A DNA stretch of 64,000 nucleotides from Candidatus Omnitrophota bacterium. Its GTDB lineage: Bacteria; Omnitrophota; Omnitrophia; Omnitrophales; Aquincolibacteriaceae. Both the position numbers and the translations under genes were made by a program. Where the stretch lies: contig JAUYMS010000030.1 of assembly GCA_030698625.1 (NCBI GenBank), positions 20,016 to 84,015 of the forward strand, given 5' to 3'. The stretch's first letter is position 1, and every line of letters begins with the position of its first letter. This document shows, in pieces, positions 1 through 56,882 of this stretch. The notes under the pieces are model-generated. The model worked only from the letters and a program-made list of their open reading frames with translations. It was not told where the DNA came from and made no database searches.

Positions 1-15
1 GCACGCGGCGGCATC

Positions 16-3000
16 ATGATGCGTCAGGGAAAACTCGTGCGCGTAAGTTTTACCGATCCTGTTGTTATTCACGAGTTTGTGGACTATACGGATTCCGCAA
101 TTCAAGTGAATCGCAATTTTCAAGAGCGTGTCCGCAAGCTGGGTATTTCGATGCCGTCACATCCGGAGACGGACGAATACATTTACCGCAAGGACGTCGC
201 AACCATGATCCTGAGCGGGCTCAAAGGTGTGAACATCCCCGAAACCACGCTTGTAATGGCCGATCCGGACGAGCGGCTCGCGGAGCGTATCCGGAAAACA
301 AGAGCAGCCGATCCGGCGAATCTTGAAATCATAGAAGTCAGTCCGCGCGACTGGAGCATTCACGAAAAGGTCCGCCGCATCCTCGATGATTTTCTGAAGC
401 CGCCGGGCAGGGAAGAGGCGGTGCTGAAGCCGCACCACGGCAGCGGCGGTGTCGACGTAATGATCTTTGGACGGGAGAACCTGGAACTGGCGATCAATCA
501 CGCGCTGCGTCTTCTGCGATCGGGGAAGAACCTCATCCTTCAGGAAAGGATCCGCTCACCTTTGATACGGCATGAGGGTGTGCTTAAAGACTGGACCCTG
601 CGTGATTTTATTGCGCTTACGCCGGAGGAGGGGCGGACCGTCGTCAGCGACGTCCTGATCCGTTACGACCGGGCCGGCCGGCCCGTCAATATTACGCAAT
701 TCGCCGATGTGATGACGCGCGAAGACCTTGTTCTAAGCGAGATGGACGGCGACTTTGAGTGGAACAGAGAGAGGCTTGAGACCCTCAACCATGACCTGCG
801 AGAGACCGGCGAGCACATTTATGCACCTATAGCCCGGTTGATGAGGGAAGACGGTGTCCTCGGAGAAGACGAATATCCGACAGAATTCATGAGTGCCGAC
901 CTGATGTATGACGGCGGCAAGCTCTATGTCATTGAACTGAATAATGACAAGACGGGCGGGATGGGCTGGTTGAACGATCACCTGCGGCGCCGCGCCGAAG
1001 CCGGCGACAAAGATGCGGAGGCCCGAATCGGGGCCTCGGTGCGGGACTGGACCAATTATATGGTGCATCGTGCCGGTGTTTATAAGAGCACGATCCTCGG
1101 CATGGAGGCACAAACGGTTTCCGCCGCCGAGATTTATGCCGCTCTGCCCCGCGAACACCGCGACTATCTCGATATTATCGAGTTACTCGCAGAGGTGTCC
1201 GATTTCTTATATTTGCCGGTGAAGCCTAAACTTTCAGCGGTGCGCGAATGGGACGAAAAACGATTGAATCAGATGAAGCAAGCGCTCAGCCGCCTGATCG
1301 ACGGTAATTTCCGCAAGGATAACTTGAGGGAAATGCCCGCGAAGAGTCAGGCAAGACTGCTGGATTTGACGGCAAGGCTCGGCATAAAACTTGATCCTGC
1401 GGCTGTTCGAAGCGCGCTTGCACCGTCTCATGAAAGCGCGGCTGGATGGAGAGACGACAATACCGTCGAACTGAAAAGGCGCCGGGAACTCTTCGAGGAA
1501 ATTGAAGGGGCATTGCTGCGCTCGCCCTATGCGGAAAAACTGGCCGAGACTCTTCCCGGACGCAATATCGAAAAGACGACCGAGCAGATATTGGACGCCT
1601 TCCTCCGCACGCCGCGGCATCTGTTCGTCCCCGATCGTTTGCGCGAGCGTGCCTACGAGGACAAGGCTTTTCACGTCGGACTAGGCCAATCGATCTCACA
1701 GCCCAGCCTGATGGCGTTCGTTCTGGCTGTTTTAGACATTGATGAAAACAAGAAGGTCCTTGAGGTCGGCGCGGGGACCGGATGGTTTGCAGCATGGATG
1801 GGACGTCTCGCCAAAGAAGTCTATGCCGTCGAAAGAATTGAAGCCCTTACCGAACTCGCGCGCCAAAATATTGGAAATCTCGGCATCGAAAATGTGAGCG
1901 TTATCACCGGCGATGGACACAAGGGTCTGCCGGAAGAGGCGCCCTTCGACGCGATCGTGGTTTCGGCAAGTACGCCGAAAGTGCCCGACAACCTGCTCCG
2001 TCAGCTTTCGGCCGCCGGCGGCCGTATTGTGATTCCCTTAGAGAAAGGCAATGGACAGCAGGAGCTGACCCTGATTACGCGCTATGCTGACGAATACACA
2101 TACACACCGCTCCGGGAAGTGCGCTACGTGCCGCTGCTTGACGGAAACCGTGACGATTCTACCCGGTCCGAGCTGAGGGTTACGGTCGATCACATGGCCG
2201 CCAAGCTGCAGCGCGAGATTAGCAGCCGGGGCGGCCGTAACATTCGCGTGGAAATCTCACCTTCCCTCGGGGAGTGGCTTCGCCGCGATGCCGTTTTTCC
2301 GGCCGGCCTCTTCAACGGCTATGCGAGTTTTATCGAGGCCCTGAATTTTTCTCCCGACAACAAGGTGCGTATTATTTTTGCCAGCTGGAGTGACGAGCAT
2401 TTCAATGTCAGGATCGACGGCACATGGCGTTCCATTGAAGAAATGCGGGCTTTTGTCACGGATAAAAATATTGTGGTCCTTAACCTGAGGGAGGCTATGG
2501 CCGACCCCGACGGACTGCGTGATGACGCCTATCACGAGCTGGCCCACGTCAAAACATTCGAGCGTATTTATGACGTAGTGCAAACTGACGCGACCTATTA
2601 CGTGCTTGAGACCCTGGCGGATGCACTGCCTTATGAGGCGCTGTTGTCGAAAAACAAAACGGCCGCAAGAAAACACTTTAACCGTGTGATCCTGCCGCAA
2701 ATGCGCGGCTACACAGCAAAAGAATTACGCGGCGAAATGGCGGATCTCGCTACGGGCCGCTACCGGCACGCCGAGAAGCTCATCAAATTTCTGTTCTTCA
2801 CGAAGCGCTACGGGAAGGAGAAGGACTATGAGGCCTTCTTCGAACGCCTGCGGCAGCACTACCCTAAACGGGGAGTCGTGACCCGCTTGAAGACCGGTGC
2901 CGGCAAGATGGTCGACGAAATGAATAAGGCCCTCGACGACCTTGCGCAATTTGAGAAGACTGAAAAGACGATGGTCTACGACGCAATCGGCGCTTCCCGA

Positions 3001-6000
3001 AAAACCGCCGAGGCATTTTTAAAAGCCGTCAGCGGCCGCGGGCGTTCGGAACTGCGGGAGTCAACGCACGAGGATGCGTGGTTGACGCATCCGGCGGAAA
3101 CGGACTGGACGAAGCGTACTCCTTCGCAGATCGGTCTGTTGGTGCGTCTCATGCTGCAACGCGCCGAGATTAGCATAGACCGGTTAATGCAATTGCCTGC
3201 GGAAGAAGCCGAAAGGGTTTTCAGGGCCACGCCAATTGAGCCGCTCAGTAACGGCGAACCTTATACACTGGAGCCGCTGTATCGGGCCTATGACAATCTC
3301 CGCGAAGCCGAAGGCTCAACCCTCAGCACCTTACAGTTCCTGTTTTATAGAAACAGGATTCCGTTTAAGGGGCAGGAAAGCGCGGCACGGCGTCATATCC
3401 TGGATGAACACATCAGCGGCAATGAGCGGCAGTGGTTTTCAACGATTGCGCAGGAACTCGATTTCGAAGCATGGATGCATCTCTTCGACACCGACCAGGG
3501 CCAGGCCGCGCTTTTCCTGCTCCTGGCAAAACGCTACCCCGATTTTCCGAAGACCGCCTTGCTCGCCTTGATTAGTGAAAAGTTCATGGACTACGAAGAG
3601 CGCAACGGCATCGAGCCCTTTACGCGCGAGGTCTTGATGGGCGAGAGGACGGAAAAGGCCTTGGCAGCGTACTGGTCGGGCAATATTACGACACGACTCG
3701 AACAACAGGAAATCGAAGATTTGCGTGACACGATTGCCCGGCAAATCATTATTCGCATTCACAACTCCATTTGGGACAAGGCGCATAAGGTGAAGCGCGC
3801 CAGAGGAAAATCCGCTGCGCACAAAGCTGTCGAGATAGGCCGTCAGTGGTTTTCCGCGCGGCTAAATGACAGGGAGCATCCGGTGCCGCGTGATGTGCGC
3901 ACGATCTTTACTCGAATCAGAAAACATTACGACAAGCTGAGTCAGGTCAACTATCAGCGGCATGTGAAATTCCAGAACGGTAACGGGATGTCGCAGTTGA
4001 TGCTTCACCAGGTGGAAGGCATTTACTTTGCGCGCCATCAAAATGACGGCCGTGTCATCCTCGGTGACGAAATGGGCGTCGGTAAAACGGTGCAGTCCCT
4101 CATTGCCGCTGAGGATGCGGGTGCTGAGAGTGTGCTCATCGTGGCGCCGACCCGGTTACTGGCGAACTGGGAAAAAGAGATCAGGGACTGGTTGGGCAAG
4201 GACCAGAAAATTGCGGTTATTCGCGGGAGCGGGAAGGCGAAACTGCGTCAGATCGAAGAGGCCAAAGAGGCAGGTGCGCGGTTTATTTTGATCAATTACG
4301 AGGCCATGGCCAATGTCAAAGAGAGTAGGAATGGTGACGCCGTCGTTGATGCGCTTAATGACTGGGACTTTGATTTTCTGATTGCCGACGAAGTTCATTG
4401 GGTCAAGAACCCGAGCGCGGAGCGCACCAAGGGTTTCCGCAAGCTCAACAAGAAAAAGGCGAAGGCCATGTACCTCTCGGGAACTTCGGTGGTTAACGGT
4501 GTCGGCGATCTTTTTACGGCACTTAATGCGGTAGACCCCGAGCGTTTCCCCACGTTTAAGAAGTTCGTCGGAGAATTCACCGAAGACGGAAGGCGGGCGC
4601 GCGGAACCGTCTCGGACCCGCTGAAGTTTGCGCAGCTGAACGTCGAGCTCAACCAGAAATACTTCCTGCGCCGGACGCTCGAGCAGGTCATGGGGCATTT
4701 GCCGAAAAAACATGACCTCGAAGAGATTCATATCGGGCTGGATCCCGAGCAGATCGAAGTCATGGAGGATGTGGAGGAGCATAATGATCTCCTGCGCAAA
4801 GGGGAGCTCGAAATTGATGACGACGAAGAGCTGCCCGAAAACGGTAAAAGGGGACCCAGCCGCGGTTTCGGGCCCTATGAGATTCAAAAGCAGGTCTTGA
4901 TCGACCTCGAGCTTCTGAACGGCATGGATTACAAACATTCGGATCCGCCAAAGTACCGGGCCGCGCTTCAGAAAGTGCGTGAGGTCATCGCGAAGGGTGA
5001 CAGGATTTACATCACGAGCCGGTACCGCAAAGTGATTTATCGCCTGCGTGAGTTTCTCGCCGATGCCATCGGTGCAGATGCGATCAGCTATATCGTCAGC
5101 AGCGAACACGACGGCGTGGAGCAGGACGCGATTGTCCGCGAGTTCAACGAGAACCAAAAGAAGAAGGTCTTTCTTTCCACCTATGGAATCGGCGGTGAGG
5201 GATTGACTCTCAAAGCAAACCATGTGCTCTTTGTCGATCTGCCTTATACGCCCGCAAAGATGAATCAGGTTATCGGCCGCGTTTATCGCTATGGACAGGA
5301 GAAGGAAGTTTATGTCTACGCCCTCGTGGTTCCCGATACCGTTGATGAAGATATTTTGGATATCTTGAGCCGGAAGGAATCCCTTTTCGATCAGATTATT
5401 CGCGGCAAGCTCAATGTCGAAGATACGCGGAAGATGCTCAAGCACCTGGAAGAGCAGGAAGACAGACGTTCGGGGCGGAAGTCTCAGGCCCAGAAGGCGC
5501 GGGCGCGCATTGCCGACATCTACAATCTTCTCAACGAGGGTGAAAACGAACTCGCCCAACGGGAATGGGACGACTTCATGGAACTTTACGAAGAAGCCAT
5601 TGAAGACGTCGCGGCCACGGCGGCCACCCAAGCCCTTTACTCCTACATGCTGCAGGAACATGACGGCAATCGAATCGATCTCGGTTACAAGTCAGACGAT
5701 TATGAAAACCCGCGCTGGGGCTTTCTTGCCTCGGGGCCGTCGGTCGATCTCCGTGTCCTCAGACAAATGCAGGAGCACTTTTCGGAGCGGGGGGTTGCAG
5801 TAGAAGGAATTGATTACTACGAACTCGACTCGTCCGCCAAAGCCCGTGCCCTCGGACATGCCTGGCAGGTCACGAAATCATTCCCGAATCGGCCGAGCAG
5901 TCAGCTGACTTACGACCTCTATAACGATAACCTGCCTCAAAATCAGTTCGATTTTGTGAGCTCCTCAGAAATCGCCAGGCCGCGCCCGCGAATCAAAAAC

Positions 6001-9000
6001 AAGAAAGGCATCAGCATGAAACTTTGGGCGCTCTCCCAGATGGTGCAGTCCGCCACCGCAGGCGGCCTTGTTCTTATCTGGGATCATCACGGGGCTTTTT
6101 CGAAGAAGGCCATGGATTTTCTGTCGAACGAAGAGACCTTTGATCTGGAAATTATTAACACCGAGGGTTCGGCCATAAAGATTCCCGGTCTGGATGAGGC
6201 GACGCGCAACATGGTCGACGGGGTTACCTTTATTTTGGCGCGCAAGCGCAGTCACAAAACTTTCAGCGTTGAGGACCTGAAACGCATTCAGAAAAAATGG
6301 CCCGATGGTCTGCATATCGACCGGGATCAGCAGCTGGGTAGCAGGATTGCCAAGAGACGGCCGTTGAAAATGACGGACGAGGCACCGGATGACAAACCGC
6401 GCAGGGGAGTGCTCGATGTCATTACGCCCGGCGCTCCGGCGGGCCTCATCTCTTTGGTGCAGCGAGTGATCAAGAACAAAAAGCGCACCGGGGCCGACCA
6501 AAATATGGAGGAACGCCTCATCGAAGTGTTTGAAATTCTGCGCAGCGGTTCAAGAAAACCCGAAGACGTTCGGAAGCTTCATGAGCACCTTCGCAAGATT
6601 CTCGAACGCGGTCTGGAGCCCGACGGGATCAGGATCTTGCTCAGCCGCGTCAAGCGCTACAAGCGTTATCAGAATCGCAAGGACTTGAATGCGGTGATTG
6701 CCATGCTTGAAGGCACCCTCGCCAAGGCTGATGATGAGACCGAGCCCCGTGAAAAGGGCGAAAAGGAGACGGGAGGAAAAGGCGCCGGCGCAAGTAAACG
6801 CGGCCGTCGTCCGGGGAATGAACTGCCGAAAATTATTATCAATGACGGAGACGTGCTTCAAGCCCTGTCGTTACAGGGGATCATCTTCCGTAAGAGCTCC
6901 AAGTCGATTCGCACGGGTGTTCATGTGGAAGGCGCCACGGTATGGGTGGACCCTTACCTTATCGCTTCTCGCGTGCTCTCGCCGGAAGAACGGCAGTATA
7001 TCCTGCAGCTTCTCGTCTATATGCACCTCGAGCTGGTTCACCCCGACAATCCCGCGGCCGCGCTGCTCGTGGGTCTGCGGCATTTCCGCGAGCTCCTGGA
7101 CAAGGACGAGGTTCACGCTGCGCTCCAGAAAATGGAGCCGGATAAGACGAATATCTTTTACTTCTTTTTTGACAGCCATGATCTGCCGACCTGGCAGGAA
7201 GTGGAGCAAATCATCGCGGTGGACCCGTCAAGTGTGCCGCCTTACCGTGTGCAGGATATTCTTGGGCGCTTTACTCAATTTTTGCTGAAGCACCGTAGTT
7301 CCGAACACCTGCCGCCGGAATTGCCGGATGAGGGCGCGATTCCCGCGTTGCTCGTGAAGGCTGGTGAAATCGACGGAAAGCACGGCAAGAAAATAGCCGC
7401 CGCGCGTAAGACGCAACCCAAGAAGATGCGCTCGAAGCATCGTCAGGAAGAGAGTCTGCGCATCGTGGAAAGGGTTCTGGCGGCGCATCAGATTACCATT
7501 ACCGATTGGAATGACGATGCGGCGGCCGACGTCATTCGCGAGAGAATGCTCACCGGTCCGGTAAATCACGACAGCCTGTGGCGGTACTTTCACGAACCCC
7601 TGCTTCGCGTCAACCAAGACTGGCGTGCCAGTGAGGAAGCCAAGGAACGCGTGCAGACCGTCTATCGCGCGCTATTGCCGATGCAATTTAGAGCGGTTCT
7701 CAAAGCCGGCAGTTATCGATGGGATGAATCTCGGGAAAAGTTGAATGAGGCGTGGATGAACGAGAGGGATTACCTCACGCTCGGCGAGGAGATGAAACAG
7801 CAGAACGGCGACTATGTGGAAGATGCATTCTGGAAGCGGCGGGAACAGGATCTGGGAATTAAGAACGGGATGAACGAACGGCGCTGGGCCATGTCGGCTC
7901 GTGCAGGCATTCGCAAAGGGTTCAGTGAAGAGACCAACACCGAGATTATTCGGGGATTCCGGGCCTATTTGACCAATCCGCTTTCGCTCTTCGAAGAGAA
8001 TGAGGTGATCGCCCCGTATGCGGAGATCTCCGTGAAGGTCGCCGACATTCCGGGCGCGAAAGGTTCCCGCGTCAGCATCGCGTTTGAAGATCGGGAAGTT
8101 GCTTATCTCGGCACCGGTTACAGCGAAGACAATTTGATCGGGCGCTGGTATGTCGTCCAGAAATTCCCTTCGTCCGAAGTCGAGTATCAGGATAAAGATC
8201 TAAGGGCCATCGATGATATTCTTTTGGAGCTGAAATACCATTTTGAGAAAATAGATACACTGACGCGTTCTCAGCATCGCGAGTTTGTCCCGCATTACAG
8301 CTCACCCTTCTTTGCCGACTCGGCGCGCCTTATGTCGCAGTTGGACTCCAATGAACTCGGCCTGAACCGGGACCGCTTCGGCGGAGACGCCATGAAGATT
8401 GTTAATATCTTGATACCCATTCTCAAAGGCACGGGCACCTCGGACGAAGCGAAGACAGCGGCTCGGAGGTTTTTGACCGCGGTCGCCCCAAGCATGGCGG
8501 ACGAAATCGCCGAAGGCTCAATCGACAAGACGCTCCTTAGCAGAGCAATTCTCACGGAGAGGAAAATTCAGGTTGATTACGAAGACAAATACCGGGAGGG
8601 AGGTTTTTCGGACGAGGAACAGCAGCTGGAAACGGACAAAGTCAGGCACGCATCGATTATGGCGAGGCATGTGGCCAAACTCGCACTTACCGAACAGTCG
8701 CAACAAGCCCTTATCGCCGACTTTGTCGAGAAACACGCCGGCGATTTCCCCGAAGGACTAAAAGCAGAGGACTTACGGATAGACATTGTTTGGAACCAGA
8801 CACTTCGTGATGAAGGGATTCAGGAGCGCGCGGCGGTATTCGCCTCTCATTCTAATGTTCGCATCATACGCGATGACGAAGTCCTGGCGGTTCTCGGACT
8901 TAACTTTATGCCGGGCGACATGCAGGGCCGGTGGCATCTGAGCCAGAAGTTGTACAAGAACGGTAAGTTTGAATTCCCGAGAGGTAAGTTTATCCGCACG

Positions 9001-12000
9001 GGGCAGATGGATGCGGCAGAGCGAGAGGCGGGGATTGATCTCGGCCTATTGCGGCATCAGGGAGTGGTCATCGGACGGCCGAACTATAAATCACTCGTGC
9101 TGGTCGAGAATCCGGCTAAAGAGGGGCAGGTGTTTGTCCTGCGCATGACGACGCCCGGGAGTTTGTTCGGGACGGCCGCAGATCGTGAGCCCGTTACGAA
9201 GATTGACATCGCCCAAGATGCGGTTTACAGGATGCCGGACAGTGGAGTGGTGCTTCACGTCAAAGACGGCCTGATAACCGTTAAGGCCGAAGTCAAACCG
9301 GGCGCGTGGGAAAGTTACCACTGGATTTACCACGCCGTTTTTGACGCAGACGAGTGGCCGCAAATGGACTTCCCCGAATTTAGCGGCGGCGACTTTATTG
9401 TCGACGATGAGGTCCGCGACGTGGCCCTGCAGAAAGTCGAGCGATGGTCTCAGGATACGACTTATGCCGCCATTACGGCGGCGGATGTGGCGGACGGCCC
9501 GCTTTTCTTCCGGCCGAGCGCGGAGGCGGCCTACGGCCTTGCGGCCGTCAGGAACCCTTGGCTGGATGATTCAATTCTCATTTTTCAGACAGACATCGAC
9601 GGCCGCATGATCGCGCCCAGTCCCAAACCGATCCTCGGTGTGGATCTCGACGCGAATGAGACATGGCGGAGTCCTATTAGGGGTGTCGGACGTGATGGGA
9701 AGACACTGTACTTTTGGCTGCATCCGCAAACGGGTTCGATCTACTGGGCGCATTTTGAGATCAATAACGGGGCATCGTCGGCTGAACCGCCTTCAGATGG
9801 AGACGAGATCGTACACCCTGCTTATCCTTTCAAAGAGGGGCATTTGGAGCAGGCCGCGAATGCAAGGGCCGGTATTATTCAAATCCAAGATAAGGGAGGC
9901 CGGAGCGGTGTTCGTGACGTCTATGAAATTAGCCGCGATGTCTTGGCCCATGACGGGGTCATAGTCACTTACTATTCAACCATGAATCGCTATGCCGGTG
10001 TTAGTCACCTGCATGTCATCCAGAGCCGCGAAAATCCGAATCTGGTCTATATCTACGGTCTTGACGAAAATTTCCGTTATGTGCCTCGCGACGAGCGTGA
10101 CCACTTGCATGTTCTGGATCTCAGAAACCCCGATTCGCGTACCACCGATGCTGATCGCAGGGGAAACATCACATTCAAGGTCATTAATGCGGGTAATGCC
10201 CTGAAAATTATCCGTTCTCACAGTGATATGGAAGGCCAGAGAGCGCGCGGCGAAGAGGTTTATGCCGCCAAGTTCGTGCCGGATGATGAAGGCGACGACG
10301 ATTGGAAAACGATTCAGAGCATACTAAATGCAGCGGCCGTGATAAACGGCAATGCACAGTTCCCGCATTATGATTCGCCTGTCTTCGGGGAATTTGTAAG
10401 GAAAATCCTGCACGAACTGAGTCCCGAGGAACTGGGCAGCCGTGATGGAAGCACGCACCGCAGATTCCACGAGCGCGGTAAAAACCTGATCGAGCCGTTG
10501 CTCGTGATGGCGGAGAGCACGACGGCGCCGGCTAGGGTGAGAGACACGGCGAAAAAAATGCTCATCGCGTTTGCGCCCGAGATGCGCCGTCAGATTCTTG
10601 CGGGTAATATCGACCGCCAGCAGCTCATGCGTGAGCTCATCGGCGAAAAAACAGAATATGTCGGACTCGAAAGAAATCTACAGGCCGAAGGATCCACAAG
10701 GGAAAAGCAGGCCCTCGAAAACATGCGGTTACCCAATGCGAGGTTCGCCTCGATTCTCGCGCGATACAATTCCGCCCTTAAGCTCGACGCAAAGGCCCGC
10801 GACTTACTCCTCGACGACTTTATGGAAAAACACGGACAAGGTCTTGACCGAGAAACTCTGAGGGTCGAGGTCGCACAGGAGCAGGAAATAGAAGATTACA
10901 CATCCGGCGGCGGCTTTCTCGACCATGTAAGCGATTTGGTTTCACGCATCCGCATCATTGACGGCGAGGAGCCGCTCGCCGAACTTGGTGTCATGTACAG
11001 CGAAGACGATATGCAGGGTGAGTGGCGCTTGCTGAAGGATGCCGGCCGGGAAAGTGTCCCGACTGGCAGCTACTTATTTCCCGAAGGCGAATTCAAAAAA
11101 AATAAGTTGATGCCCAAGAATGCGACGGAGATCAATCCCGAGGACTGGAATGACGGCGCGATTGTCTTCCAACAGTTGGGAAGCGCCTATGCTCCCTCGC
11201 CGATTGCTCTCGTGCCTTCCTTCGTAGATCCGAATAAGATTCTCGTCCTTCCCGTTACGAGCCATTTCAGGACATTTAAAGAAACAGCACTCAGAGAACC
11301 GCTCGGCGTGCTGGACCTGAGCAACCCTTCGGAGGACTACCTTAAGGTTTCGTTCTGGCCCGATCGCCAGGACCTTCAGGGGAGGGAAACCCTGCTGCGC
11401 GTCATTGACGGCGGTAAGGTGGAAGTCGTGCAGTTAAACGGCGAAGCGGTCCCCACGATGTCCCGTGCGGCCTTCGGCGCGGATGATTGGACGCAGGTGC
11501 CCATGGCCGAAGTGGTGGGCGGCACGTTCAAACGCGGTCCAAAATTGCAGTCGAAGGACCCCAGGAAATTTGCTTATTTGGCCCGTAAGAAGTTTGAGAA
11601 CGGGCGGTCCCTGATGATTCGTGAGCCGGAGGATACCTATCTCGTGGCAGGTCAGAATCCTTGGGATGCAAAGTCGGTCATCGTTTTCCGTACGGATGCG
11701 GAAGGCCACATGCTCGACGAAATGGACGGCCGGCCGATTCTGGCCTTTTCTACGATCAAGGCAGGCGTTCACCAAGTCGGAGACATCCATTTTCAGTTTG
11801 ATGACTTCGTGGTTGATGGTCTCATGGCAATGCGGAAGGGCGAAGGCGAAGACGAAGAAACAGCGGCCTATGAAGCGACTTTTGTTCCCGGCCCGGAACC
11901 GTATCCTTTCTTAGGCGGAAATTTCGCACCCAAAGCAGGTCAAGAACTCGAAGGGATTGAAATTACCGGCGGCGGCATCACGGAAGAATATGAGATCAGC

Positions 12001-15000
12001 GGCGAGGTGCTCGGCGGGGACGGCGCCGTGGTTACCTATTACAGCAGCCACTCGAGTTACCGCGGCGTTTCTCACCTGCATTTCATCCGCAGCCGCAAGA
12101 ATCCGGACTGGGTTTATGCCTATGGCCTGGACGGCAATTTTCGCTACAGCCAGTGGCGGAACACTCCGCTCATAGCAATCAATCTGAACAAGCGAATTAG
12201 CTCATACGCTCGCGGAGAGCATATGGGCAACATCGAAGTCAAACCCAACTCTTCGGCAGACGGTATTGTGGTCCATCGCCGTAACCAGATGAACGTTGAG
12301 ACCGCTAAAGATGAAAACGGAGAGGTTCAGATTCTGGACGTGAGTTTCGACAGGCGGCGCGCGGAAGTCGTTTTCGCCGCCGAATTTCATCCTGATGGCG
12401 CCGAGTCCGAAGGGCGTCTCAACACGTTCAAAGCGCGCTTCATGGCGGATGAAGGATGGTTCGCGTATCCTTACGTGCACGGCCGCCTCAAAAAAACAAG
12501 TGTCGATGCCCAAGACGGTATTCAGTTCAGCCGGCGGAATGGGAGTTCCACGAGCAAGATTTCGCGTGAAGCACTGGCCGGTAAGGGTGTTCTTATCGCG
12601 CAATATAAATATACAAAGGCCGAATCCGAAGAGCTTGTTTACTATCATCTGATGTTAGACCCCGAGAATTCGAAGAGGCTTTATATCTATGAACTGGACG
12701 GAGACGGGCGGGCCGTGCCGGCCGACCCGGAGCCGCTTGCGATACTGAACCTGTCGGACTCGCAGTTTGAATGGAGTAATAAGCACAGTAACTTGTCGGT
12801 AGGAGCAAATTACGGCGAGCCTGGGTTTCTCCTTAGTGTTAATCACAACAAGGGACCCTTCGGTGAAGTGTACCGCGCCGAATTCATCGCCGATCCGCCG
12901 GCAGAAAGAAGTGTAAGCGAAACTTATCCGGCTTACCCGTTTGCCGAAGGTGCGTTTAGGACTCTTGCGACCGGCGAAGGCATGACCCGGGGGCATAGCG
13001 ATGTCTTCCAGACTGCAGAGATTGACCGAAGCGTTCTTGCCGCCGAGGGTGTGGTCGCGACCCACTACGTGCCATACGGACCTCACCGCGGAGTTTCACA
13101 TCTTCATATTTTCCAGGACCGCAGCAACCCCGATCTCATCTATGTGTATGGCTTGGATGAAAAATTCCATTATGGCCAGTGGAGGTCAGGCCCGCTGGCA
13201 GTTCTTAACCTGGCCGATCCCGCCCTGAATGTGGGCGAGGGCGTGCGCCGCGGGAATGTCTGGGTGCAGAAGTCAGCTGACAAGAACAAGGTTCTGATCA
13301 CCCATAAAAATCCGCGCTACCCTAGGCGGCCCGACCGCGATGAAGGAATCTACCGGGTTCAATATGTCTCGCGGGAGCAGGCGAAGTATCCCTATGCCGG
13401 AGGACGTCTCGTAAGACCTGCCGGAAATGAGGCGACTGCCGGAATCACCTTCGGCCTTAAAGCGGCCAAAGGCTCGGCGGCCTATGAATTGAGTCCGGAG
13501 TCGCTGAGCGGCACGGGTGTGTTGGTGGCAGAATACGTGCGCAGCCCGAGCTGGTCACAGGAAATTTTCCATCATCATCTATTCCTGGATCCTCTTGATC
13601 CTCGAAAGCTTCTTCTCTATCGCCTCGACGAAGAGGGCCGCGCGACCGGTGAGCATCAAACGCCAGTCACGGTCCTGGACCTGGATGAAGAGTTCCGCTG
13701 GTCGACCGGTACCTTTATCCTCATGAATGATAAGAACGGAAAGGGATTGTCTCTAACCCGTCGCAAGGGTCCGTTCGATAAGGTTCACCGCGCTCGCTTT
13801 GTGCCGGACGGCGGAGAGGCAGTACCGGACAAGGCGCTTGAGAGATCAAATCTCGTTCGCAACGGTGTCTTCAAGCGCCTAACGCAATTGAGGAGATTTA
13901 AGTTCGGGGAATTTACGGATCATGCGGCATCGTCGAAGTTCCGATGGACGGCCAGCGTAGGCCGTCCTCAATTGGATGCCGGGCAGGCCCTGTTGGTACT
14001 TGAGAGCAAACTGGGGTCGGAACGAACATCTCTGGTTGCGGTGAGGCACTCGTCCCGGGTAGGGGTGGTTCAGATTTACCGGCTTGGGAATGACGATCGC
14101 ATTGTTGATGCCCGGGCCCAATTGGTAACCGAACTGAATGCCGAAGAGTCCGAGAGCTTGGGGCTGTTCACCTTTACAGTTAAATCGAACGGCGCGGTTG
14201 AGGTCAGCAAGGCCGACGGACGCGTCGTTGCCTACTCCGCAGAATTTATTCCGGGCGAATCGGCTGCGAGCGGCGATGACCGCCTGCTTGAAGAGGCCCT
14301 CACTTATGTCGGAGGCCACTACCCCGATTACGACTACCTTTTCGGCGTGTTCTCTTACGACGATCTCGAATGGCCCTCGGCTTTTAAGCCCTTCTTCGAA
14401 ATCCTTAAGAACCCTGATGCCTCTGCCCAAGCCAAAGAATTCGTGCGGCGTATCTTTTTAGCGCGCGCGCCTTCGCTCTATGAGGCGATTGTGAGCGGCG
14501 AAATTTTGGGGATGGATGAAGACGAATTACTCAAGATATTTAAGCAGGAAGAAGCGCTCTGGGATTTTCAGCAGAAATTCGACGGAAAGGGCGGAGAGAT
14601 TCATACGGCTTATTACGCGATTGAGGAGGCGCAAAAGGAGAAAGGGCTTGAAGGCGTTGAGATTTCGGCGGTGCGCATGGCGGGATTGCTCGCCGATAGC
14701 GAGCCGCTTGTCCCGCGCGGGCCTTCGGCCGGATTCAGCACGGCCACCCAAGCGGCCCTTAAGAACGACTTCTTCGATCGCTACGGGGCCCTGTTTGACG
14801 GGTTAGAACGCAAAGACCTCTATATCGATTATGAATTTGACGTCCCGGCTTACGAGAATCTTAAAATCGCACGCATCATCATGCGGCGCGGAATAGACGG
14901 TCCCGAACTGGCGCATCTCGGCACGGGGCGTACCTTCGACAATGTCCAAGGGGTATGGCATCTGAATCATGAGCTCGTTAAGGCGTCGGTGCCCGGGGAG

Positions 15001-18000
15001 TATATTTTCTTCCGGTCCGAAGAACCCCTTGAGGGCGAGCGTGCACCGGACGGCCGGGACCTGATCCTGCCGCTTGCGGCATTCAGACAAACGGTGGGCG
15101 AGGAAGAGAAAATTACCGGCGGTGTCTTTATCATCGGAGACCGGTTCGGCTCAATTCCTCACGGTGATGCCATTGCCGTGCAACACCCGGATCACCCGCA
15201 TCTGATTTTTATTTTCAATAATCTCGGCAGAGAAGGGAACATTATCGACGAGTCTTACCGTCAGCCTCAGCCGGCAGCGATCCTTGATCTACTCGACCCG
15301 CAACCGGTCGAGGTCGAAGGGACCCGATACAGCGTGACTCCCGACGGCCGCATCCGGATCGGGAATGCCAATCTGGATAAAAGAGGCTCCGCATCAGTTT
15401 TTGGCCTGGTCGGGGGCTCACTCGTGTGGTCATCGAAGCCCGGGCAGAATGAGGCGACAGGGGCATCCGACGATATAGAAGTGCCTCTGGATCCGCAGAC
15501 GACAGCGCTTAGAGAATTGCTCGGAGGCGATCTGCTTCACAAGATATTGCGGCCGGATTACAAAGGAGCGGACATCCGCCAAGCCGTCAGGAAACTCAAA
15601 AAGGATAAATTCTGGTGGCCGTTCGACCAAAACGCTTCGCCGTATGCACGCCTTGTCACCGAACGCATTTATGCCGCGACGGTTCCCGCGCTCGCGGACC
15701 GCGTTCTGTCAGGTGATCTTGATAAAGAGACTTACAATGCGGAACTTGACAGGGATCTCGGCGGCAAAGACTTCTCCAGGCTTCGCAGGATGTCGATGCG
15801 GGACAATGACGGCAAGGCGCGGGAATTGAGCCGTCCGGATAAGGAATGGCTGATCGCAGATTTCTTTAGCAGACACGCTGATGCTTTGGACGAGGACCTC
15901 GGGCCCGAAGCCCTTGATCTCCGGATTAAAGAGACCGATAGCGAAACAGATTTCCTTATTGTGAGACGGTATAAGGTGCAGGGTGAAACGGAAGCCCTGG
16001 CGCGGCTCGGCACCGGGTTCGAATTCGGCAACTTGCAGGGCCGGTGGTATATAGAAGGCGGCGCCCTTCGGGGAGCCTTCAAGACAGGGAAGCACTTTGG
16101 TTCCATCGGTGACGGTGCGACAACCGTAACCCTAGAGCCCTCGGTCCTGGATACCGGCGGCGTCTACCTTGACAGTGCCCATCATGATGTCAGCCGGGGT
16201 TTTGTATTGCCCGTTGTCTTGAGGCGCGACATAAACAGGCCCACACTGGTGCACGCCTACATGCTGAGTCCGCAGGGAAGTTATGGCGGTATCAAGTCGG
16301 GTTGGGAATATTCGCTGGCGGATATCGATCTCACAAAAACGGGCTCGGAATACAGGGTCGAAGAAACTCGCATCACCGTTCTTGCCGGCGGGCGGCTCCA
16401 GATTTCACTCACCGAAAAGAGCAATCTCAGTCACGGTGTCTATGCCGCGGAATTTTCTCCGGTGCGTCGTGAATCAAACGCACCGGATTTGGCTGTCGTC
16501 CACGATATTATTGCCGCCTACGGGCTTCATCGCTACCTCGGATCCGATCAATTCGGTTCCTGGGCGCGGCCGCATATATTGCATGGCGGGCTTGATGCGA
16601 AACGTTGGCATGACAGTTTCAAGCCGCTGCTCGGGATCGTCAATAACGCCGAAGCCGACCCCGAAGCCCGCAGGCTGGCGCAAAGAGTCCTGGTGGCCCT
16701 CACGCCGCGCCTGCGTGATCGCATTTATCCCGATGGGGCTGCAGAACAGGCAGCGCTGAATGTTCCGGCGGCGACAGAGCTAACCAAGGACGATATCTTC
16801 AATTGGGCTCAGGGCAAAGCCGATCCTGCAGTTGGAGCGACCCTGGTCATGCCCGTTACTTATTATGACGAAAAGAAGGGCGGGGCCGACGTCATTCCGC
16901 GGGCCCGCGTCGAGGTAAAATCGGCCGGTACGGGCAAGAGTTTCGCCGTCCCCATCGACGATCTCAGATTGAAACGGAAAGAATTGAAGAATGCCACTTT
17001 AGCCGTGATCGAAGACGCGAACCTCGGCAAGGTGCTCGCCATTTTTGCGCCGGACGATTACGAGTCCTGGCGATTCGGAAATTACACGGTCACCCCTCTG
17101 GCAGTTTTTCCGGTGACGGCAAAACACAACGGTTTCCGGCAGCTGGCCGTACCTTTTCTCGTGGATATCGATAAGCTCAGCCGCGGGGAACTCGAGGAAG
17201 TGCGCGTGCCCGGTCATCCCTGGAGCTATATTAAGACTGCGGCCCGTGTGGAACCGCCTTCCGGCAAGATGGAGTCAACCACGGCGAGAATCATCTTGAA
17301 GTCGACCGCATTTGGGGTCCTTGTCCAGATGGGATTTACGCCGACCGCCGCGGACCTCGAAAAGATCGATCTCGAGAGCGGTGAGCGAAACATGGACGTT
17401 TATGTGGTGATCAGGCAGCATCCCAACCGCGGGCCCATGGTACAAGTCTTTCGTTTGAAGGATTATGATCCCGCGAAGCCCGCTGAATACGGCGAGCCGA
17501 TCGTGACCTATGCGTACGTCGACGAGAAATGGACTCAGATTATCCCCGCAGTGAATGACATCATTGATGCCGCCTATGGCCGTAAGGACTTGGTCGAAAC
17601 CGCGGATGCCTTCGAACAAAAGGTCGCGATCAATCAGGATGGTCGCAGGGCCTCGATTACCATCACGACCGGAACGCACGGTAAGAACAAAAAAGCATTC
17701 TCCTTTACCTTCTCAAAAGAGGAAATAGATGAATTTAAGCTGGCAGAGAATCCGGCAATCGTCCGCCTCAAGGTCGATCGCGATTACGGCCCCTATATCG
17801 CCGTCTCGGCCAGGGTGAACGGGGAAGAGCGTTTGATCGGTAATAGTGTCGAGGTCAAGAATGAGGCGCAGAAAACACGTCGCGTCGATTTTGACAAGGA
17901 GGCCTTCGCCGACTTCCTTAATAGTGCAAACAATATTCACGGTGAACCCATCGCGCCGCGAATTTATACCCATGCCCATGAATTAACGGAACAAAACAGG

Positions 18001-21000
18001 TACATGGTGGATGTCCTGAACCGCGCCCAGGTCCGCAGTCTGGACGAACATGGGATTAAGCGGCCGGTCTTTATTCCCAGGCCGGATGCGAAGTACGGAT
18101 GGGTCTTTGAGACGCATGATGTGGATACGTACAACAAAGACCCCGGCAAGAAACCGGAAGTCGTTTTAGCACGGCGGCCGGGCCATACAACATTGATGAA
18201 AGTTAACAGAGTGAGTGCTCCTGCTGAGCCCGAAGCGAAGCGGGATACAGAGGGCTCCATTCTCGATGAAGCCACGCTTCTTTCAGAGCTCATGAGCGAA
18301 TCCCACCTGCAGATGTTTCACGAGCAGGACGCCATGTATTGGAACCGGAATTATGGTGAAGCCGAAGACATCGCGCGCTGGGCAGAACGTGCCGGCGAAT
18401 GGAAAGACCGGTGGATTCACAGTGACCCGGTCCGCGAGGCGTCGCTGCAGGCCAGTATCTACGGCAAGCTCAAATTAAGTTCGGATAGCCAGAAACTTTT
18501 GATTCGGGATTTTCTTGATAAACACGGGGATCAATTTGCAATCCCGCTCGGTGCGCAGGACCTCTGGATCCGCATCTTTGCCTTCGACAAGCATTATCCC
18601 GATGGGGAGGTTCGTCAGGCCTCCCGTATTGCCGTGGCGCATAAGGACACCGGCCGAATCCTGGCGACGCTCGGGAATTTCCACGAACCCGGCGACCTGC
18701 AGGGGTATTGGCGGCTTGAGCCGTGGAGCAACCCGCCGGTGCCCGCGGAGCGATTTAAACAGCACGGCTTCAAGGAACGCGACTATGTGCGAGACGCCGA
18801 CGGCACAGTCAGAATGCCGCACATCAATGTCCCGGCCTTACTCGCGACAAGGGTTGCCAATGAACAGCCGGGCGTCACCAGCGGTTGGATGCTGACGCGG
18901 CGTCAGAGGGATTCAAAACACGTTCTCATCGCGAAGGGAAGGAGCCATGAGCCCGGCGAGATATTAGGTGTGCTCGATCTCACCCGGCCCGGTTCGTCGG
19001 TGACGCTGGATCATGCGACCTTTACCGTGGAGTCCAATGAAAAAGTCGCCGTCGTGCAGGCGCCTGATCCCGCCCTTGCTGCCATAGCCACGGTGCTCGG
19101 AAGTGTCAAGGTCAAGGGCTCGTCGACGCTTTCCGAAGGCTCTGCTACCGTGCGTTATGTCACGGACGAATACGGCGCCCGGCGGTTTCGACACGCATTC
19201 TATGACCAGCGCGGCAGCGCAACGGATCAAAGTGACTGGGACCGGATCCATGAACCCTTAGTCCGCGTTCTTGAGGATCCGGCTGCGTCCGAAACGGCCA
19301 AACGCGTTGTCCTGCGAATCTACCTTGCGCTTGTGCCGGATCTCCGGGAAATGATGGAGTCCGGAACGATCGATCGCGCGCGCTTGCGCGAGGAACTCCG
19401 CAATGAGCACAAGATCTGGGAGCATATCGAAGCGAAAATCGAACGCGGTCACGCCAAAGCCCGAGGGGAACATAATTATCCGAAGGATTTTGGGCCGGGA
19501 TTCAAAGCAAAACGAATCCCCGCAGGCGTTTCGATCCGGCGTCTGACGCCCGTTAAGTGGGCGGCGATGCTCGCGAACGAATATAAAATCGAAGAGCTTG
19601 AAACGGGCGACGAGGAGCTCCTCAAGAAAGATTTCCTGACTCGGCACGGCACGGATTTTGGAGATGTTCTCGACAGCGGCGATACCAAGATTCGCATGAG
19701 ATTTTCAGGGGTGGAAGTTGTGTTGGCAGAGGCAGAGGAGACCGTCATTGCAACATTGGGAGACGGCTATCATCCGAAGGAACTTCGGGGTACCTGGTCT
19801 ATTGACAATGAATTTAAGTTTGATGCCAGTCTGCATCAACTAAAGAAGATCCTCTATAAGGGGGCCATGGTGCGCATGGAAGACGAGATCTGGAATCGCG
19901 AGATTTTCGGCGAGATCGTTCGCGGGGATCTCTACGTCTTAGCCGGCAAGGCGAAATGGGAGACGGTGCATGAGCCCATGCTGGAAATACTCCGGGACGA
20001 AAAGGCATCGGCCGAAACCAGGCGTGTCATCAAATTGATTTATCTGGCGATCACACCTTCTCTTCACGCCGAGATCCTCGGCGGGGAACTGTGGAATCAT
20101 AAAGCGGCGATTCAAAATGAACTGGAGAAGGAAGTAGAACGGGCGGGGCAGGAGTATCGGGCAGCGAAGGCGGAGCAGGAGTTCCCCGACATGACCCTAA
20201 CGCGGCAGGCTTCGGCCTATGCCAGAGTCGGCCAGAATAGAATTTTTGTGGGCGCGGATGAAGAAGCGTTGATCGATGACTTCTGGCAGCAGCATAGCAG
20301 TGACCTCCCTCCCTGGTTTGAGAGGGAAAGGCTGAAGCTGATTGCGACACAAATCCATATAGATAAGATTCATGAGCTCATGCCTCATGGCGAGAGGCTT
20401 TATGTCACGATTGCTCATACCGCCGATGACGGTAAGCAGACAACCCTCGCACGGTTGGGCACGAGTTTTGCGCCCAATAATCTGGTGGGGCAGTGGAGCA
20501 TCTTGTGGGAAAACATTGTAATGCCGGCGCTCTCGCGCGAAGCTCTTAATTTTGAGGACTACAAACAACTCGGTATGGGCAGCGACCGCGCAGAGATTAT
20601 TGTTGATGCACAAACGCTGCTGCAAAGTGGTGGTTTGTTTATAGACCGGTCTTCTCAAAGCGAAAGATACCGCAATCTCGCCTTAATGCCTGGGCCTTCG
20701 AGTAAAAACGTACTGCTTGTTATCGCCGTTGACGATAAAGCGCCCGATGGAGATCAGCTGCCATTAGGCACGCTGCGTCTCGACCAGCCGGGCTTTAGCC
20801 GGGTCGAGAGGAATGAGACGCAGTTCGAAGTGCTCGAAAACGGTCAAGTCGTCGTCAGACCCGGGGTCTTTGATGGTTCCATCCCCGAGGGCTATATCCG
20901 GCACAATCCGGTCTATCAATTGGCCTCTAAAAAACGCTCCGAATTACGTTCGTCGATACAGGTCGGTAATCCCCTCTATCCCGGAAAACTCGAGATGTTC

Positions 21001-24000
21001 GGTGATGCGATTATGTTTCAATGGCCGGCCGAAGGCAGTGAAGACGACGCGCTTGTCCTGATGGGAGGGAAACATAGGGAGGATCAACTGATTTTGAACG
21101 GCGTGCTGATACGGCCCGGGACGAAGATCCAGGAAATGCAGGGGACTATGGCTCTTGAGCATGTCATGGGTGGTCTCGTGAAAGTAACCCGCGAGCACTA
21201 TGCGGCCAGCGAATACCCGCTCGAATTGCACAATGTTCAGAATCCTTATATTCTGGCAGTTGCCAACCAGCTGTTCGAACCAGGCACGCTCGAGATTGTA
21301 CCAGAGATGATGAGTGCCGAGGAAGTTCTTGAAAACGAAGGCCGCCCGGCGCGCTGGCGCCCGCTGGATGACATCGATTTTTACAGCGAGTTCGGACCGG
21401 TTACGGTTTATACTGACGATTTTTTGAATGCCAAAGAATTAGCGGAATTCCAGCTAACGAAAAAAGACGGCCGCTACGAAGTGACGGGGCCGGCGCCGGA
21501 GGGGATGCGCGTTCATGTCAGCGGGAACATCCTGCGCGTCACGGATCCGGCGACCAACCGCAAGATTCGCGTGCTTGCGCTTGAACGTCCGTTCAAGCTT
21601 CGTGGTAAATTGCGCGAAAGTTTCGGTCTCGCTCGCTCAGAATTAAGGGCGGATAACAACGGTCGAGTCGTTATGACAACTTCGCTTGAAGGCTTTGAGC
21701 CGGATGAAACAGCGCTCGGCGCCGAGGCAAGAGCTCACCTCAAGAGTTTTCGTAAGAGCGACGCCGTCGGCCGCGGCGATATGGCGCGGCTCTTTTTCGA
21801 CTTCCTGCTGCAGGATGAGATCGACGTTGAACTTCTCGACATCGGTTATGAAAGAGCACTAAAGCGCTATATGAAGGACAGGATTACTCCTCAGATTCGA
21901 AACGGACTCTTGATAAAAGTGCCTATCGCGGGTTTTATGGGAGATGAAGCCAGAAATCTACTGACGGCGTTGCTCATGGGCCGTGTGAGTGCGCGCGAAG
22001 TGCTCACGATCGCTATCCTTGAAGGTGTGCGTATCCCCGATGTCTTTCCCGACACCGAGGCGTTTACGGCTGAGCAGAAAGAGAAACAGCGGGACAGGGC
22101 ACAGAATTTCAGCGAGCGGTATTCGGCCCTGCTCAGCGGCAAAGAGGAGATTAGCATTTCAGTAAAGCTTCCGCCCGAAGATGAAGTGGACTCGCTTTTC
22201 GGGGAAATAAGCCGCCTCGGACGAGACCTATCTGAGATCCATATTTTTGCCGACCGTGACCTCGGAGACTTGAGGGAGTTCTGGCGGGCTTCCCGCAAAG
22301 GAACCCCGAAACCCCGTCCGTCTTATCTGACCCCGGTCGAGGCCGCCCTCATAGTTAGAATGCCGCAGCGGACTTTTGAGTCTTATCTTTATCACCTGGA
22401 ATCGCAGCAAATCGAATCGATGGACAGTTTTATTCAGAAGCACCTGGTTGCGACGGGTCATATTAAATTGTCCGATATCGAAGCGAAGCTTGATACCGCG
22501 CCGAAAGACTTGACCGAAATCATAGAGGATGCACGCAGAGGCGATGTGTTCGCTTTCTTTGACCTGATTCAGCGGCTTCACGTTCAGGTCATTGCTTTCA
22601 AGAAAATCAAGACAGGGGTGGATGTCGCGGAAAAGCAGAAGCGTGCGCTTCCGTCCCTCGCAAGGATTCTAGATAAACATATTACCGCCTTCGAGGGCTA
22701 TGATGAAAAATTCCGTGCCGGCTTCGGCCGGCTCGTCGGGTATCTCGACGAGTTGCTGGCCTTGCCGGCGCTCAAGCGGGCTGTCCTTGAGGATGCGTTT
22801 TATCGGGCGCGCATGATCGAGCTCATCGAGACATTGTTCCGCAATGATGATCTGGCCACGGCACAAGACCGTGCCCGGCTCCTGCAAGCCTTGGCGCATC
22901 TCACCACGGCCGAAGATAATACGCATATCTTCATTATGGAAGAGATGGAGCTTGAGATGCTGGGCGAAGGCCGCGAGATCGAAGGAGCGATAGACGCCTA
23001 TATCACTGCTCTTCGAGAACTCAGTGCCCGCGATCCAAAGATCTTGAGATTTCTGAAACTACGCATTCAATATCTTTCAATGAAGGAGCACAAACAGGAC
23101 GCCGGAAATGAGGATGCGGCGATTGCAGCACGGCGCCGTCGTGTTGCGAAGACGCAGCTGGATGCGTACCAAACCGTTCTCGGACGCATTGACGAGAGTT
23201 TGCTTCGCGCCGTGACACGTGACCCCGTCAAGGAGAACGCACTTGACGAGTTCCTTGCGCTGGGAGAAGGGTCCTGGAAAAAGAAAGCGACCCTTTTAGC
23301 GGAGATTCAAAAAGACCCTGAGCTGAAAAGGAGCTCAAGGGTGATTGATGAGGCGTTTGTGGGTAGGATACGCCAACAAATCGAAAAGCTCTATGCCGCC
23401 GAAGACATCAGCCAGGATCAGCGCGACGAAAAACTCCATGCCGCGGAGGCTTATCGCCGGGCATTAAAGCTCGCTGAGCCGCAGGGTGCATCTGCGGTTG
23501 CCTCAAGTGCGGTGTATTTTACGCAGGCTGAAGCAGCTGCTCACTTGGTTCTTGAGATTGAAAACGAAGTGAGGCACCTCTTTGATGAAGACCCCAACCG
23601 CAACCCGATAGAAATTTATCAGGCGGCCCGCGACGTCTATGCTGACTCAAAGGCGTTTCTCGGGAGTGAACAACGAATCTATTTCGAGACGGCCCTTGTC
23701 ATTCTGCTCAGAGAGCTCTATACGATTCAACGTCTGCGGTGGCGGACTTATGAACTTGGGCTCCTCAAGGATCTTAAAGACCTCGGTTTTTCTTCGACGT
23801 CCGGGGTCACCAATGAAGATCCCAAACAAGCCGAATTCATGCGAAATCTTCTCGGGTTCCTCCCGGGGCAGTATCAGGTCATGTTTTACCCGGGTTCGGT
23901 TGAAGTCACCATGGACGAAAGTTCCTTTAAACGCGCATGGAAACTGACGGGCAACGGTTTCGGGCGCGAAGTCGAGAACCTGAGCCAGGTTGAAATTGCT

Positions 24001-52878: not shown

Positions 52879-52884
52879 TCTCAA

Positions 52885-53829: not shown

Positions 53830-53838
53830 GAAACGATA

Positions 53839-54597: not shown

Positions 54598-54603
54598 CGG
54601 GGA

Positions 54604-56832: not shown

Positions 56833-56882
56833 TCTAACTGCGACCCCTCTTCCCCGAATTGCCGGCTTTATACGTATTAAGG

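Follow-up and report, generated by a model that had tools for sequence, protein, structure and literature searches.

The stretch of DNA analysed here (64,000 nucleotides; hereafter the window) covers positions 20,016 to 84,015 of contig JAUYMS010000030.1 from a Candidatus Omnitrophota assembly (GCA_030698625.1), and its first part is occupied by a single giant gene that carries a SNF2-type ATPase. Frame +1 runs without a stop codon from nt 1 to the stop codon at 27625-27627, so that the giant open reading frame (ORF) spans 1..27627 on the plus strand, the strand on which all features within the giant gene are given below. It is open at the first base of the window and comprises 9,208 codons. 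Since there is no stop codon 5' of nt 16, the protein may extend past the window and its length is at least 9,208 amino acids (aa); exact look-ups of the products that would start from the ATGs at nt 16 or nt 19 returned no match, and neither did that of the first ORF downstream. The visible protein contains no cysteine and no transmembrane (TM) helix or TM-like segment, its highest 19-residue hydropathy being 1.49. Here, we show that the SNF2 ATPase lies in a conserved cassette, itself a unit of giant proteins that form a family specific, so far, to Omnitrophota. These proteins are soluble, poor in cysteine and built of several units, mostly with the peptide RSE[L/V]R between them, which tends to lie in hydrophilic stretches.

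The SNF2 core was delimited by Pfam, by alignment to the Sulfolobus SSO1653 structure (1z63) and by motif positions, with an N-terminal lobe holding motifs I-IV at 4006..4791 and a C-terminal lobe holding motifs V and VI at 4969..5298. PF00176 (SNF2-rel_dom) matches aa 1336-1597 (E = 7.2e-28, 97.9 bits vs a gathering cut-off of 24.9) and PF00271 (Helicase_C) matches aa 1657-1765 (E = 7.8e-13, 49.1 bits vs 23.5), the two domains together covering nt 4006-5295. This span falls inside the interval 3990-5400 in which an earlier reading made from the letters alone (the sequence-only reading) had placed a SNF2 domain with all its motifs, and motifs I to VI are intact: motif I (GDEMGVGKT, aa 1355-1363), Ia (LIVAPTRLLANW, aa 1379-1390), II (ADEVHWVKN, aa 1462-1470), III (LSGTSVVN, aa 1492-1499), IV (YFLRRT, aa 1554-1559), V (STYGIGGEGLTL, aa 1726-1737) and VI (QVIGRVYRYGQ, aa 1756-1766). 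The core is collinear, end to end, with the solved SSO1653 SNF2 core (1z63 residues 36-476, E = 3.8e-28), and all SNF2 motifs are conserved in P0134, the sole long homologue that we found (MAFFT alignment A2). The profile scores and motifs place the core in the SNF2/SWI2 ATPase superfamily, far beyond chance. The module appears complete and is probably an active DNA-dependent ATPase, in agreement with the active translocase that the earlier reading had proposed.

The closest stand-alone relatives of this core are compact helicases of phages and plasmids. Its strongest profile match is PHROG 62 (phrog_62, 'DNA helicase') at 306 bits, and tblastn aligned 95-100% of the core to compact helicases of Streptococcus phage Dp-1, Gordonia phages and several plasmids. 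The best stand-alone homologues, with 28% identity, adjoin PrimPol-DnaB, PD-(D/E)XK, AAA_24 and queuosine genes, i.e., phage replication modules. These compact proteins and SSO1653 resemble the core in collinearity, motifs and core size, but the phage and plasmid helicases are free proteins of ~420-560 aa that contain cysteine, whereas the core studied here is embedded and cysteine-free and shares just 26-30% identity with them. Judged by these matches, it is a divergent member of the compact phage/plasmid/SSO1653-like SNF2 group, and neither a RapA protein nor a known defence helicase. Taken alone, the SNF2 domain is an ordinary member of a known superfamily, and the interest lies in its carrier.

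Within the carrier, the core belongs to a conserved cassette of ~1,400 aa (3058..7305, ~aa 1020-2435), collinear with aa 709-2070 of P0134. The latter (MBI2167792.1, 3,751 aa) comes from a different groundwater Omnitrophota metagenome-assembled genome, and is the informative one among only five hits obtained when a profile of module A, a repeat of the giant protein described below, was searched against 1.84 billion representative proteins. BLASTP aligned aa 998-2405 of the giant protein with aa 687-2059 of P0134 at 32.5% identity over 1,484 columns (E = 5e-174), and cassette identity in alignment A2 is 37%. In order, the cassette has a helical lead-in (~310 aa), the SNF2 core, a further conserved stretch (~250 aa) and a helical tail. 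An RSELR opens the shared block in either protein, and an RSEVR follows just after it in P0134; the counterpart of the latter site in the giant protein is degenerate (HRSSEH in A2). Downstream of the core lies a conserved post-SNF2 region (5713..6087) with the motifs RWxFxxSGPSxD, ELDxS, DFVxSSE and GGxVLxWxH, conserved in alignments A2 and A5. Its only hit in a PDB profile search was a PARP zinc finger, likely spurious, and its AlphaFold2 model is poor, with a predicted local distance difference test score (pLDDT) of 41. Motifs seen by eye had made a class I methyltransferase a candidate for this region; Pfam at E <= 5, the PDB profile search and hhalign against the PCMT domain described below were all negative, no DPPY-type motif was seen by eye, and this reading has no support.

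Near-total exclusion of cysteine is common to the family. The giant protein has none in 9,208 residues, vs 100 in 10,271 (0.97%) in the 31 neighbouring genes, and at the neighbours' frequency the chance of finding zero is ~e^-90; in frames 2 and 3 of the same DNA there are 302 and 364 cysteine codons, respectively. P0134 has two cysteines in 3,751 residues, vs 0.92% in its neighbours, and a third family member, P0135, has none in 1,297. Cysteine is present in 120 of 120 stand-alone SNF2 homologues, at a mean of 1.1%. Many exported bacterial proteins are known to exclude cysteine, and export of the giant protein in an unfolded state would explain its absence here.

The family also shares a short peptide. 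RSELR occurs six times in the giant protein vs 0.04 expected (maximum of 2 in 2,000 shuffles), and RSE[LV]R occurs five times in P0134 vs 0.02 expected. The first copy in the giant protein (2164..2178, aa 722-726) lies 7 residues after the PCMT domain and the second (3043..3057, aa 1015-1019) at the start of the conserved cassette; the third, fourth and fifth are at 20935..20949 (aa 6979-6983), 21634..21648 (aa 7212-7216) and 24748..24762 (aa 8250-8254), and the sixth (27037..27051, aa 9013-9017) precedes a C-terminal unit of 191 aa (27052..27624). RSE[LV]R stands for the most part where units meet, and does so in two proteins that are only ~32-37% identical. Both proteins end, after the last site, in a C-terminal unit of ~190 aa with weak homology between the two; that of P0134 measures ~185 aa, follows an RAETR and matches that of the giant protein at 31% over 75 aa (pairwise E = 0.004). 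The RSELR copies use different synonymous codons, which points to constraint on the peptide and not on the DNA, and the flanks of 9 of the 12 motif sites lie above the 80th percentile of disorder propensity. The sole literature match for the RSELR string is in PL7 alginate lyases, whose other signature motifs include QIH and YFKAGxYxQ. These were not seen in the translation, and we judged the match a coincidence.

Beyond the cassette, the giant protein is largely without annotation. Apart from SNF2, Pfam and NCBIfam recognise only a PCMT (protein-L-isoaspartate O-methyltransferase) domain and a TPR array; ~85% of the protein is unmatched in Pfam even at E <= 5, and nine unannotated segments gave nothing credible at that threshold. 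The PCMT domain (1576..2145, aa 526-715) scores 176 bits with PF01135 and 203.3 bits with NCBIfam NF001453, passing the equivalog cut-off of 188, and the TPR array recognised by Pfam lies at 25912..26433 (~aa 8638-8811). N-terminal to the PCMT domain, motifs picked out by eye suggest a candidate ATP-grasp-like region (178..1020), with one weak PDB match, DcsG (6jil, E = 0.034, aa 129-190), and a negative result in Pfam. We noticed that this ATP-grasp-like region is followed directly by the PCMT-family methyltransferase, over window positions 178-2145 (+). Two HExxH motifs are present: HELAH (2533..2547, aa 845), which lies between the first and second RSELR and marks a candidate zincin peptidase, and HEQGH (24133..24147, aa 8045), a sequence motif only. 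Neither has a Pfam hit at E <= 5 or support as a peptidase from PDB sequence searches, and such searches with the N-terminal, HExxH and post-SNF2 segments returned nothing significant. The stretch DVIREILYNGFVHGN (aa ~8870-8900, window ~26600-26700, +) looks by eye like the N-box of GHKL/anti-sigma-factor kinases and is negative in Pfam.

The centre of the protein is an internal repeat scaffold (7537..20574, aa ~2500 to ~6860), for which 'tethered to a scaffold', the phrase of the sequence-only reading, is a fair anatomical description. It holds eight copies of module A, each of ~200 aa, and a second repeat set. The module A copies lie at aa 2513-2737, 2780-3000, 3479-3701, 4774-5012, 5184-5374, 6027-6261, 6400-6620 and 6641-6858, share 21-28% identity among themselves, and each combines a helical part, a DFxxKHG motif and an LGTGxxPxNLQGxW hairpin. 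AlphaFold, run on an alignment of 13 module A copies, predicts a helical bundle with a small sheet (pLDDT 74, predicted template modelling score 0.69), and this model had no match in the PDB (best E = 1.4). Members of the second repeat set are ~170 aa each, lie at aa ~3190-4610 and appear strand-rich by eye.

P0134 has no ATP-grasp or PCMT domain and no TPR domain by Pfam; helix-turn-helix (HTH)-like repeats can be seen in it by eye. Logan has its own, independent call of this gene, P0139, which is 38 codons longer at the 5' end and begins with an in-frame ATG right after a stop codon. The added sequence, MKPDSKKLCRRGTAFFVSLCFILLETVGNFSPLFA|SEG, is Sec signal-peptide-like, and no other segment of the protein is as hydrophobic; the 38 in-frame codons left out by the NCBI start of P0134 lie at L006 9887-10000. 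Both flanks of P0134 are chromosomal, and on neither is there an integrase, phage or conjugation gene. We observed an AbiEi/AbiEii pair beside P0134 (L006 5831-7314) and a DUF1016/SNase gene 1.4 kb upstream of it (L006 7487-8560). The third member, P0135, is a 1,297-aa Omnitrophota fragment (L007) that carries four RNA_pol_A_CTD/HhH DNA-binding domains (Pfam), which by eye lie within or between module A copies. It follows that module A may accept inserted domains and that the family may be directed at DNA.

The family is confined so far to Omnitrophota. Scans of genome contigs gave no match with the SNF2 region and only P0134's own contig with alignment A2, the metagenome scan gave only generic SNF2 genes at 22-26% identity, and scans of viral contigs gave no relative. 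A fragment contig (L014) was rejected as a family member, as it matches the LGTGF..NLQGxW hairpin only and is full of stop codons. A word-indexed protein search did not return P0134, which is present in the collection, even when P0134 was in the query alignment; this search is apparently blind to very long proteins, and its negatives therefore say nothing on these. With the SNF2 region it returned only stand-alone SNF2 proteins (<=28% identity), and with the post-SNF2 alignment or joined units 1N, 2, 4 and 7 it returned none, long proteins not being covered. The family may be larger than it appears.

The 36 kb downstream of the giant gene are ordinary chromosome, as the sequence-only reading had noted. 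Ten proteins encoded there were looked up, and all occur in the collection searched: eight are identical to NCBI records (MDP39202xx) of an Omnitrophota metagenome-assembled genome, one, with a different start call, clusters at >=90% with an NCBI record, and one matches a hypothetical protein. Most recur in a Logan assembly of SRR13727534, whose contig begins 52 nt beyond the stop codon of the giant gene. The 36 kb hold two small ORFs of no known family, a BrnT/BrnA-type toxin-antitoxin pair (29367-29919, minus strand) that closely follows the giant gene in a stretch of low GC (0.47), two SNase-family nuclease genes just downstream of it (30077-30538 and 32434-33120, plus strand), MsrB, a ROK kinase, ExbB-ExbD with TPR and VWA proteins, DsbD, Maf, Lgt and Tad pilus genes. 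GC content dips at 28-30 kb of the window. Both SNases have export-type N-termini, one signal-peptide-like and the other lipoprotein-like. SNase genes lie near both the giant gene and P0134, a recurrence that could be chance. The Tad-type pilus cluster (CpaF-like ATPase, TadE/TadG-like pseudopilins) lies at 50900-57368, 23 kb downstream of the giant gene, and Tad systems have been linked to predation in Omnitrophota (PMC10066038). There are no tRNA or Rfam elements in the window, no integrase, phage or conjugation genes in the 36 kb downstream, and no type I secretion genes beside the giant gene. GC content at third codon positions is 0.631 in the giant gene, within the range of its neighbours (0.53-0.667), and its relative synonymous codon usage correlates with theirs (r = 0.93); with such native codon preferences, the giant gene does not look recently acquired.

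What, then, does such a protein do? We infer, with a probability of roughly 45%, that it is an exported multi-unit protein that is cut at RSELR, with its SNF2 unit acting on DNA inside a target cell. The giant protein would be exported unfolded, with which the signal-peptide-like N-terminus in the longer call of P0134 is consistent. Cleavage at RSELR by a protease, for which an embedded HExxH unit is a candidate, would then separate the enzymes and the pieces of scaffold from one another. Because the SNF2 and putative ATP-grasp units need ATP and the PCMT unit needs S-adenosylmethionine (SAM), these units work only in a cytoplasm, and the site of action would plausibly be the cytoplasm of a host or prey of a small, possibly symbiotic or predatory bacterium. 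There, the SNF2 unit may translocate on the target's DNA and remodel that DNA or clear proteins from it.

Several observations weigh against this account. There is no signal peptide or secretion signal in the visible giant protein, the true N-terminus of which may lie outside the window, and the signal peptide of P0134 hinges on the choice of start codon, PGAP having taken the shorter form. No protease domain was confirmed by Pfam or by PDB searches of the HExxH segments, and P0134 has no HExxH at all. No delivery apparatus is linked to the giant gene, the Tad pilus genes being 23 kb off, and we know of no secreted bacterial SNF2 effector. Three of the 12 motif sites have ordinary flanks. As the giant protein has only a degenerate site (HRSSEH) where the cassette ends, the unit between the second and third RSELR would be ~5,960 aa long. 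Finally, the family is known from two long proteins plus fragments.

Some of the same observations would fit a protein that stays in the producer's cytoplasm as a soluble scaffold organising or remodelling the producer's own nucleoid, akin to the 'chromatin-remodelling-like activity tethered to a scaffold' of the sequence-only reading, and in which RSELR serves for docking or regulation instead of cleavage. The visible 9,208 residues contain neither a TM helix nor a signal peptide, the enzymatic units require ATP or SAM, relatives have HhH/alpha-CTD DNA-binding domains (and P0134 its HTH-like repeats seen by eye), codon usage is native and the context chromosomal. The TPR array could bind short peptides, and 6.4% of long Omnitrophota proteins are predicted to be globular. 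We nevertheless hold this scaffold to be unlikely: it accounts neither for the lack of any cysteine over a length of >9,000 residues, some of them in domains that always have cysteine in their relatives, nor for the signal-peptide-like start in the longer gene call of P0134, and Pfam finds no TPRs in P0134.

Another possibility is that the giant protein is a defence or counter-defence protein from a mobile element, either a relative of the polyvalent proteins or a domesticated DISARM/BREX/Zorya-type helicase acting on invading DNA. Such a link to conflict between genomes was one interpretation offered by the sequence-only reading, and part of it stands, in that the nearest stand-alone relatives of the SNF2 core are phage and plasmid helicases. 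ZorD, DrmD, BrxHI/HII and DpdE have the SNF2 fold in common with the core, and PADLOC models score it at 161 bits for ZorD, 109 for DpdE, 94 for DrmD and 66 for BrxH, the last over the C-terminal lobe only. Toxin-antitoxin pairs adjoin both giant genes (BrnT/BrnA here, AbiEi/AbiEii at P0134), SNase-type nucleases lie near both, and GC content dips right after the giant gene.

However, membership of DISARM, BREX, Zorya or Dpd systems did not hold up. Scores are far below the curated NCBIfam cut-offs (75 vs 1500 bits for ZorD, NF041790; 87.1 vs 950 and 72.8 vs 610 bits for DrmD, NF038318 and NF038317), and no partner genes of these systems are present nearby; the window contains neither the BREX partners PglX, PglZ and BrxC nor the DISARM partners (DrmA/B/C, methyltransferase neighbours). 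The sole MotA-like neighbour scores 17.7 bits against ZorA and is part of the ExbB-ExbD-TPR cluster. A place in the polyvalent family is not supported, with no mobile-element genes (integrase, phage, conjugation) within 36 kb downstream or on either side of P0134, and no DNA methyltransferase partner, for which the earlier reading had suggested a search upstream of the window, was detected within it, the only methyltransferase detected being PCMT, a protein isoaspartyl O-methyltransferase. There is also no MPTase hit, the two HExxH motifs having none in Pfam at E <= 5, no relative in viral contigs, and the codon usage is native. Overall, we consider a mobile-element origin improbable; the sequence-only reading was right as an observation and partly right as an interpretation. 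Made without knowledge of the organism, it had passed over the missing cysteines, the RSELR copies and the internal repeat scaffold.

A further alternative takes RSELR as a site of covalent modification, for instance of Ser-Glu ester cross-links made by the ATP-grasp-like and PCMT enzymes, graspetide-like, which would staple the giant protein. Serine and glutamate are adjacent in the motif, and the N-terminus pairs an ATP-grasp-like region with a methyltransferase of the PCMT family, a combination of enzymes that also occurs in some systems for graspetide maturation. Among NCBIfam models, those of the graspetide and FxLD methyltransferases match weakly, at 90 and 98 bits, which is below cut-off; the PCMT domain passes the cut-off of the canonical repair enzyme and not those of the types that act on ribosomally synthesised and post-translationally modified peptides (RiPPs). 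Moreover, P0134 has the motif but neither ATP-grasp nor PCMT, the ATP-grasp assignment rests on E = 0.034, and the position of the motifs at unit borders fits cutting better than modification, which together make cross-linking decidedly improbable. Lastly, a RapA/HepA-like RNA-polymerase-associated housekeeping ATPase fused by chance to a large protein, named by the sequence-only reading as the finding that would argue for a role outside conflict, is refuted, as the match to NCBIfam NF003426 is weak (73.1 bits vs a cut-off of 576), no RapA entry occurs in the best 60 of 79 PDB matches at E <= 0.001, and the RapA N-terminal domain is absent.

Among known systems, polyvalent proteins such as P1 DarB are a close parallel in design: they are very large multi-enzyme polypeptides, often with a SWI2/SNF2 ATPase, and have been proposed to be delivered into another cell, with release of their parts by embedded peptidases (Iyer et al. 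2017, PMC5512222). They are borne on mobile elements, pair SNF2 with an N6-adenine DNA methyltransferase and commonly contain the MPTase zincin (PMC5512222). The giant protein, in contrast, is chromosomal, carries an isoaspartyl methyltransferase, has no MPTase hit and includes a repeat scaffold of ~4,300 aa. The proposed export and cutting share their concept with the MARTX toxins, giant exported proteins that hold several effector enzymes, are cut at short processing sites and release these enzymes in the target cell. MARTX toxins have RTX repeats, a cysteine protease domain and a type I secretion operon, none of which was found for the giant protein, and without any cysteine in it a cysteine protease is impossible.

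The closest setting is provided by the giant proteins of Omnitrophota themselves. Members of this phylum encode ORFs of >20 kb with few recognisable domains, which are thought to serve symbiosis or predation, and the proteins are mostly exported or membrane-bound, with cleavage suspected at sites that are not known (West-Roberts et al. 2023, 10.1101/2023.11.21.568195; Seymour et al. 2023, PMC10066038; Nielsen & Lui 2026, 10.64898/2026.06.07.730766). The proposed export and cutting agree with this picture. Like these giants (Archaeovorin-type, Dockerin-type, multi-enzyme), the protein described here is encoded by one >20-kb ORF in the same phylum, has many enzyme domains, is mostly unannotated and is poorly conserved between genomes. 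The Archaeovorin and Dockerin types have numerous TM segments, SecA-DEAD, C39/S8 peptidases, glycosyl hydrolase/transferase and dockerin domains, none of which occurs in the visible 9,208 aa. The giant protein falls instead in the TM-free class of long Omnitrophota proteins, a minority made up of proteins with a signal peptide only (8.6%) and of predicted globular ones (6.4%) (10.1101/2023.11.21.568195; PMC10066038; 10.64898/2026.06.07.730766). SNF2 and PCMT are not mentioned in the text of these papers or in one supplement, and neither cysteine exclusion nor RSELR is reported in the Omnitrophota giant-protein literature searched.

Omnitrophota, like other ultra-small symbionts, are marked by giant genes, and our results add that a DNA motor, beside cell-wall enzymes and adhesins, can belong to the products of such genes. 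Its presence points to the DNA of a partner cell or to the producer's own nucleoid as a target. A broader proposal, which we regard as doubtful at present, is that some Omnitrophota make a cysteine-free effector polyprotein that is exported, cut at RSE[L/V]R as a processing signal not described before, and delivers cytoplasm-dependent enzymes into a host or prey cell, among them a SNF2 translocase that attacks or reorganises the nucleoid of that cell. If true, it would provide the first example of a SNF2 remodeller that a bacterial symbiont or predator secretes, as well as the first defined cleavage code for giant bacterial proteins. RSE[L/V]R, kept in two distant proteins, is a concrete and testable candidate for such a code, and near-total cysteine exclusion offers a simple signature for screening long-read assemblies. 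Set against the known systems, the carrier is a variant of the known Omnitrophota giant proteins, one that is TM-free, cysteine-free and punctuated by RSELR, and that bears a conserved SNF2 cassette.

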